DNA of 9,071 bases from IMG/VR virus record IMGVR_UViG_2654587570_000008; one strand, written 5' to 3'. Every line of letters starts with the position of its first letter. The stretch's first letter is position 1. A program made the position numbers and the translations under genes. Origin of the DNA: a virus. Taxonomy: Duplodnaviria; Heunggongvirae; Uroviricota; Caudoviricetes. The notes below the pieces were generated by a model, which ran no database searches, had not been told where the DNA came from, and saw only the letters and a program-made list of their open reading frames with translations. Shown here one piece after another: positions 8,771-9,071 of the stretch.

Positions 8771-8980
8771 ATGACTTTTGATGAAAAAGAACTTGATAAT
8801 GCAATTAATAAAATCATCGTAACGTCGCTCTTTTCCTGTCTCAGCGACACTCAGCAGAAACAGTTCTACGAATCGGCTTTCAACATGATCGAGCGTTGTT
8901 GTTTCTGCGATGCCGACGAGTTACCTGAAAAAATCAGGAAACAGTTGGCTGATGCTCTTCGAGTGCGACTTTCTGGGTGA
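8771..8980 (+). CDS. Hypothetical protein, N-terminal 68 aa of a gene whose 3' end is replaced by IS1
   Basis: AT-rich ORF with an AAGGA Shine-Dalgarno 7 nt upstream of the ATG at 8771. Its stop TGA (8978-8980) lies inside the IS1 terminal inverted repeat, so the native C-terminus is missing. Confidence 0.45.
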   Translation: MTFDEKELDNAINKIIVTSLFSCLSDTQQKQFYESAFNMIERCCFCDADELPEKIRKQLADALRVRLSG

Positions 8981-9071
8981 TGCTGCCAACTTACTGATTT
9001 AGTGTATGATGGTGTTTTTGAGGTGCTCCAGTGGCTTCTGTTTCTATCAGCTGTCCCTCCTGTTCAGCTAC
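8976..9071 (+). mobile_element. IS1 insertion sequence, left end (continues beyond window)
   Basis: 8976-9071 matches, from memory, the first ~96 nt of IS1: terminal inverted repeat GGTGATGCTGCCAACTTACTGAT followed by TTAGTGTATGATGGTGTTTTTGAGGTGCTCCAGTGGCTTCTGTTTCTATCAGCTGTCCCTCCTGTTCAGCTAC. Confidence 0.9.
9031..9071 (+). CDS. insA: IS1 InsA, N-terminal fragment (continues beyond window)
   Basis: GTG at 9031 followed by codons for ASVSISCPSCSAT, the known InsA N-terminus, at the expected offset (~56 nt) from the IS1 end. Confidence 0.75.
   Translation, partial: MASVSISCPSCSA

Follow-up and report, generated by a model that had tools for sequence, protein, structure and literature searches.

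The IS1 deletions of the gal region are classical examples of IS-mediated deletion in E. coli. IS-mediated deletions have been seen in evolution experiments, and it is a common observation in E. coli that an IS element inserts and then mediates a deletion next to itself (PMC4300727). Among described prophages, the cryptic prophages e14 and CPS-53/KpLE1 and the active phage SfV share with the locus studied here an early-left module (yfdR, a yfdS-like gene, xis and int), and e14 has a small gene, ymfJ, whose induction comes late in the SOS response (PMC11002266).

Here we analyse a stretch of 9,071 bp, hereafter the window, which is the whole of draft contig JHTB01000077.1 and ends inside IS1. 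The ORF that runs into this IS1 belongs, to judge from sequence comparison, to an SfV/e14/CPS-53-like lambdoid prophage, and we consider it very probable that it is the 5' end of a real 81-codon prophage gene, closed by IS1 at the joint left by a deletion of some 12.3 kb.

Results

The end of IS1 closes a 69-codon ORF

Direct reading of the window bore out most of what a preliminary description had claimed about the joint, namely that the ORF starts at 8771 behind a good ribosome-binding site and runs into IS1, that the element begins at 8976, and that the TGA stop of the ORF is formed by bases 3-5 of the IS1 terminal repeat (Table 1). The product had been given as 68 aa; the ORF has 69 sense codons, 68 of them native. 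Codon 69 (8975-8977) is GGG, composed of one native G and two G's from IS1, and encodes Gly where the native residue is Asp. The two IS-derived residues at most that had been proposed come down to this one hybrid Gly, and no residue is wholly encoded by IS1. Stop codons are found in all three frames within the first 27 bases of the IS1 end (TGA 3-5, TGA 20-22 and TAG 25-27), so that an IS-supplied stop is expected whatever the reading frame. The ORF had also been called AT-rich, which is correct relative to the E. coli genome average of about 51% G+C but not relative to its surroundings (42% in the ORF vs 43.7% in the whole window). An exact look-up of the 69-aa product found it, identical, on 10 contigs of public assemblies, and the Shine-Dalgarno sequence is kept in diverged homologous loci (gaaggaaaacaaaATG in L011 and gaaggaaatttaaATG in L016).

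The assignment to IS1 held on alignment. From 8976 onwards the sequence reads GGTGATGCTGCCAACTTACTG... (GGTGATGCTGCCAACTTACTGATTTAG...), beginning with the IS1 left inverted repeat GGTGATGCTGCCAACTTACTGAT..., and its 96 nt have an IS1 match of at least 99% in more than 6,500 E. coli records. The same 96 nt are identical to positions 6206-6301 of L004, a 5.3 Mb contig that is 99.98% identical to window 2771-9071 and carries a complete IS1 at the same joint. Along all its 768 bp this copy (L004 6206-6973) is 100% identical to elements that carry the annotation 'IS1-like element IS1A family transposase' in many E. coli genomes, and its transposase matches PF03811, PF12759 and PF03400 (InsA zinc-ribbon, IS1 HTH and IS1 DDE). 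The combination of a 768 bp length, imperfect terminal repeats and InsA/DDE was seen in L004 and in L005 (CP164306.1) rather than in the window; over 35 nt the two IS1 ends are similar, not identical. These alignments indicate that the resemblance to IS1 is not due to chance.

Table 1. Features of the truncated ORF, its surroundings and its intact counterparts (window positions unless another record is named)
Feature	Location	Strand	Description
Truncated ORF, current form	8771..8980	+	69 sense codons, ATG 8771, TGA 8978-8980; read directly and from the ORF listing
Native part of the truncated gene	8771..8975	+	Codons 1-68 and first base of codon 69 (205 nt)
Shine-Dalgarno AGGA	8760..8763	+	7 nt upstream of ATG 8771
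Conserved leader	8640..8739	.	100 nt, in 1,874/5,426 E. coli genomes whatever cargo follows
Partner gene remnant (SfV orf33; phrog_3195; WP_021563905.1)	8934..8975	-	Last 13 codons QKVALEEHQPTVS and stop
IS1 (IS1A type), first 96 nt	8976..9071	+	Left terminal inverted repeat and insA start (GTG 9031); contig stops inside the element
Missing interval	L009, 12,291 bp		Last 13 codons of the gene, all but 13 codons of the partner gene, LexA-like cI, cro, ymfL, replication genes, Q, holin, lysozyme and spanin genes, HNH gene, terS 5' end
SfV locus	L010 3481-3743 = U82619.2 25034-25296		81-codon gene, unannotated, with a putative terminator over its start

The uninterrupted gene has 81 codons

An uninterrupted homologue was identified. 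The intact allele has 81 codons (L002) and ends in ...RVRLS followed by DQFSEMCSPNLDK, and the same 81-codon ORF is 100% identical in phage SfV (25054-25296) and in three other phage records. Position 8975 is the last at which the window matches the uninterrupted allele (window 8357-8975 = L009 40627-40009), and the intact sequence reads ...GACTTTCTG up to the cut point and ACCAATTT beyond it. As had been proposed, the gene is disrupted and its product C-terminally truncated: IS1 swaps the last 13 residues, DQFSEMCSPNLDK, for the single hybrid Gly codon. The intact allele matches phrog_3311 over its full length (positions 1-81 of 81, E = 1.2e-55), of which the window copy comprises residues 1-68 only. 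The 336 nt made up of the leader and the native ORF (8640-8975) are at least 80% present in 479 of 5,426 complete E. coli genomes.

In L011, a different lambdoid background, there is an intact 76-codon homologue with 62% protein and 69% DNA identity and with the same start and ribosome-binding site as the truncated gene; L016 has an 80-aa homologue with 58% identity. An exhaustive HMMER search recovered homologues of 72-85 aa with 29-58% identity, and one 151-aa protein in which residues 77-150 are homologous. Homologues that naturally end at the cut, which would speak against a truncation, were looked for and none was found: all homologues in alignment A2 reach at least 8 residues beyond it, and the PHROG profile has 81 positions. 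A C-terminal segment common to the homologues, [DE][QR][FL]xE[LMI], lies beyond the end of the truncated product.

An AlphaFold2 model (pLDDT 80.6) has three helices, at residues 5-22, 26-41 and 53-74, and the cut at residue 68 takes off the end of helix 3 and a disordered tail. On this model the truncated product still has its first two helices and the greater part of the third, and the intact gene product is predicted to be a small three-helix protein whose function is unassigned by sequence or fold matches. A sequence profile search against the PDB gave nothing significant (best E = 0.12), and a PDB fold search with the model gave a best E of 4.2 and a TM of about 0.3; fold matches to Acb2 and Vs.4 (probability at most 0.08) were not taken as evidence. 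A zinc site of the form CCxC...C (the 62% homologue keeps C43, C44, C46 and a C-terminal Cys) was considered and rejected, the cysteines not being conserved in distant homologues.

Related genomes carry a deletion beyond IS1

Because the draft contig ends inside IS1, the window alone is compatible with a simple IS1 insertion, in which the remaining 13 codons and an 8-9 bp target duplication would lie directly beyond the element. The element would then be followed by GACTTTCTG-ACCAATTTTCTGAAATGTGC..., its right end being joined to GACTTTCTGACCAATTTTCTG, whereas after a deletion that end would be joined to GAACCTGTTTTTACGCCC. That the contig stops after 96 nt of IS1 fits a simple insertion, as does the left 9-mer GACTTTCTG, which starts and ends with G; the reported target preference of IS1 fits a 9-mer with G at both ends. 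The exact look-up of the 69-aa product, however, located the same joint in L004 and L005, both of which read through the full IS1. There the 9-mers flanking the element differ (GACTTTCTG vs GAACCTGTT) and target-site duplication is absent. The preliminary description had placed the rest of the gene and the duplication beyond IS1; what follows in both contigs is terS (PF05119) without its first 32 codons, and then the terL, portal, protease and capsid genes. The missing duplication argues against a simple insertion in L004, not against the identity of IS1. Moreover, a query composed of the IS1 right end, the duplication and the remainder of the gene had its joint covered in 0 of the 5,426 complete E. 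coli genomes. By these flanking sequences a simple insertion is refuted for L004 and L005, and as an account of the window we regard it as very unlikely.

The intact CPS-53-site prophage L009 served as the reference for the size of the deletion. Compared to L009, the flanks of IS1 are collinear and in the same orientation and the interval between them is absent, as in an IS-mediated deletion: the right flank maps to L009 27717-22481, on the same strand as the left flank, and the gap is 12,291 bp, a size that is approximate since the ancestral prophage need not equal L009. For the window's own strain we infer the deletion from its near-identity to L004 and L005 (99.94-99.98% over 6.3 kb). Thus, of the earlier reading, IS1, a real truncated gene and an IS-supplied stop stand, whereas the simple insertion does not, the rest of the gene being deleted together with the immunity, replication and lysis genes in L004 and L005.

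No record among the 5,426 complete RefSeq E. coli genomes spans the joint, and the exact junction had no match in a species-representative collection (one genome per species), from which the lineage is probably absent. With synthetic junctions, neither a precursor with IS1 and its duplication in the small gene nor one with IS1 in terS was found in the 5,426 complete E. coli genomes.

The plus-strand ORF behaves as a gene

Another possibility is that the plus-strand ORF is not a gene, the real gene being the opposite-strand orf33, so that IS1 would cut non-coding or antisense sequence. Existing annotation agrees with this view. In the curated SfV record (U82619.2) only orf33 is annotated, the 81-codon gene is left out, and a 'putative rho-independent terminator' is placed over the ribosome-binding site and start codon of the gene. 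In the two intact loci examined, RefSeq has only a 91-aa ORF, on the opposite strand, a third strain has a 49-aa version called on the plus strand, and no full-length version was found among the RefSeq calls in the intact loci examined. The plus-strand ORF also has no match in Pfam, NCBIfam or PADLOC.

Against this stands the pattern of substitution. Nei-Gojobori counts were made against the L011 homologue, 69% identical at the DNA level, over codons 1-54 only, where there is no overlap with the partner gene. The substitutions at codon positions 1/2/3 are 14/4/30, with a pN of 0.18 and a pS of 0.83 (saturated), the strongest bias of all frames. In four of the other five frames pN is at least equal to pS; the fifth, an antisense frame sharing its third positions with the ORF, shows the weaker bias expected as a by-product (pN 0.22, pS 0.50). 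The non-overlapping part of the partner gene has codon-position counts of 17/7/37, the same signature as the plus-strand gene. At least six diverged lineages have intact homologues in which start and ribosome-binding site are conserved; two of these lineages lack an orf33 homologue, and a confident three-helix model was obtained with AlphaFold2. Codon-position bias together with intact diverged homologues indicates that both the plus-strand ORF and the partner ORF are genes. These comparisons point to the plus-strand ORF being a real, selected gene and to its copy in the window being truly truncated, and we give the non-coding alternative slightly less credence even than a simple insertion.

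A convergent partner gene is cut at the same joint

The earlier reading missed a second gene at the cut, on the opposite strand, of the SfV orf33 family. Intact, the plus-strand gene and this partner run towards each other, and their 3' ends overlap by 83 nt; the IS1 joint lies inside the overlap, at a codon boundary of the partner gene, and the partner beyond its last 13 codons is deleted. The 69-codon ORF would then be a decaying stub without its partner gene. In two diverged lineages the partner ORF is about 30 codons longer and lies antisense to the conserved core of the plus-strand gene. Apparent orf33 homologues at 50-63% identity (P0044 and P0051) turned out to be frameshift variants and not diverged relatives.

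The two genes occur together in five of the seven diverged lineages sampled. The pair adjoins cI in four lineages (L002, L011, L016 and L022/L023), and in L020 the holin genes separate it from the lysis cassette, and its neighbours are accessory genes, a Fic-Phd pair and a Bro-N gene among them. In L019 and L024, where two of the more diverged members lie, the plus-strand gene is found alone, between Q and a holin gene. Both partner proteins were searched against Pfam and NCBIfam, with no match, and against PADLOC, where the best hit (E = 0.035 over 24 residues) is noise; membership in a known anti-phage defence or toxin-antitoxin family was not found with these three resources.

Tentatively, and with more doubt than confidence, we suggest that the plus-strand gene and its orf33-family neighbour belong together as a conserved two-gene cassette, which could be a prophage accessory system not yet described. 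This cassette appears to travel as one unit between the cI-proximal and Q-holin slots of different lambdoid phages, and it could be an exclusion, toxin-antitoxin-like or regulatory pair with mRNAs complementary at their 3' ends. If this reading is true, the IS1 event described here is a natural knockout of that system.

The leader, the slot and the rest of the window

The conserved leader upstream of the ORF is the left edge of a variable cargo slot, on the other side of which lies a repressor gene; in K-12 e14 the leader lies within 'ymfH'. It contains a hairpin (8715-8734) that is identical in the 70%-diverged locus L011. The leader could be an early-left promoter/operator or a terminator; a scan for sigma-70 promoters upstream of the ORF gave none that was convincing. 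On the minus strand, 8346-8651 is a 101-codon G+C-rich ORF with an Arg/Cys/Gly-rich translation and no PHROG match, and RefSeq lists its counterpart in relatives as a pseudogene with a frameshift. The stretch may be regulatory, non-coding DNA belonging to the early-left operon. At 8357-8368, yfdQ and yfdP (SfV orf31 and orf32, about 1.3 kb) are absent in comparison with SfV-like relatives. Both parental boundaries of this joint have similar G+C-rich hairpins, GCCCCCGCAGGGGC and GACCCTGCAAGGTC, and the joint looks like a module-boundary recombination.

The truncated gene appears to be rearranged often. In L025 (GCA_028759505.1), an independent IS-less deletion at 3195-3210 has created a fusion of this gene with the 3' end of a side-tail-fibre gene, and this allele family (P0005, P0006 and P0010) is common. 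Alleles P0012 and P0001 read into what we take to be an IS629/IS3-family end. The left breakpoint in L025 is 3 bp from the IS1 joint, a closeness that we do not read as meaningful, being compatible with chance given the many rearranged alleles examined.

Positions 1-888 of the window belong to an IS3-family element with an OrfB transposase (rve domains), and the contig starts inside it. A scan against Rfam had one match in the window, the ALIL programmed-frameshift pseudoknot of IS3 at 1-72 (RF01497, 60.5 bits). Two tyrosine integrases stand in tandem at 3491-4687 and 5757-6929, both on the minus strand, one with a P4-type arm-binding domain (PF13356) and the other with PF12167, and no tRNA genes were found in the window. 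The tandem integrases suggest that the prophage remnant adjoins another integrative element.

With an IS3-family element at its start and IS1 at its end, the contig is bounded by IS repeats on both sides (1-888 and 8976-9071), as might be expected if the joint between the ORF and IS1 were an assembly artefact, a chimeric contig end from repeat collapse; the same 69-aa product and joint are, however, found on 10 contigs from independent assemblies, three of which, each longer than 1 Mb, cross the whole IS1, and we find this the least credible account of all.

Discussion

We favour a deletion at whose joint IS1 closes the 81-codon gene. IS1 would have inserted at one of the two breakpoints, and the interval would have been lost when one IS1 end transposed intramolecularly into a target close by, as in a classical IS1 'adjacent deletion'; alternatively, recombination between two directly oriented IS1 copies could have removed it. 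What is left would be a remnant of a prophage that is locked and cannot be induced, passed down in a small lineage of E. coli.

An IS1-bounded deletion in a decaying prophage is an ordinary, well-known kind of event in E. coli, where IS1 ends that close ORFs and IS-bounded deletions that cripple prophages are routine. A draft contig that stops inside an IS element cannot be taken as a simple insertion; here the far side of the element is 12 kb off in the ancestral map. Mildly new is a conserved gene that is unannotated in the SfV record and in most of the RefSeq loci examined, which amounts to a small annotation correction. The convergent, overlapping gene pair found across several phage lineages is a possible lead on prophage accessory genes.

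Compared with IS1 adjacent deletions and deletions by IS-IS recombination in E. coli, the locus is alike in having a full-length IS at the joint without target-site duplication, and flanks that are collinear with the ancestor while the interval between them is lost. There is no difference in kind; what was lost here is a prophage's regulatory core, and no precursor state was found. Compared with the CPS-53-site prophage, the late module terS(P27)-terL-portal-capsid is 97.7% identical, whereas the remnant has another integrase and nothing left of window 7380 matches L009. Different from e14, CPS-53/KpLE1 and SfV, the remnant is without yfdQ and yfdP, and its region from immunity to lysis has been removed at IS1. 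As for the gene pair, homology to YmfI/YmfJ of e14 was examined and rejected (best BLASTP E 0.03, profile E about 0.08), which leaves these as analogous cargo and not as family members. In position and arrangement the two pairs are alike: ymfI/ymfJ of K-12 e14 sit in this slot too, with the conserved 'ymfH' leader on one side and the LexA-like repressor gene on the other, and they are likewise small convergent genes whose 3' ends overlap, by 63 nt as against 83 nt here.
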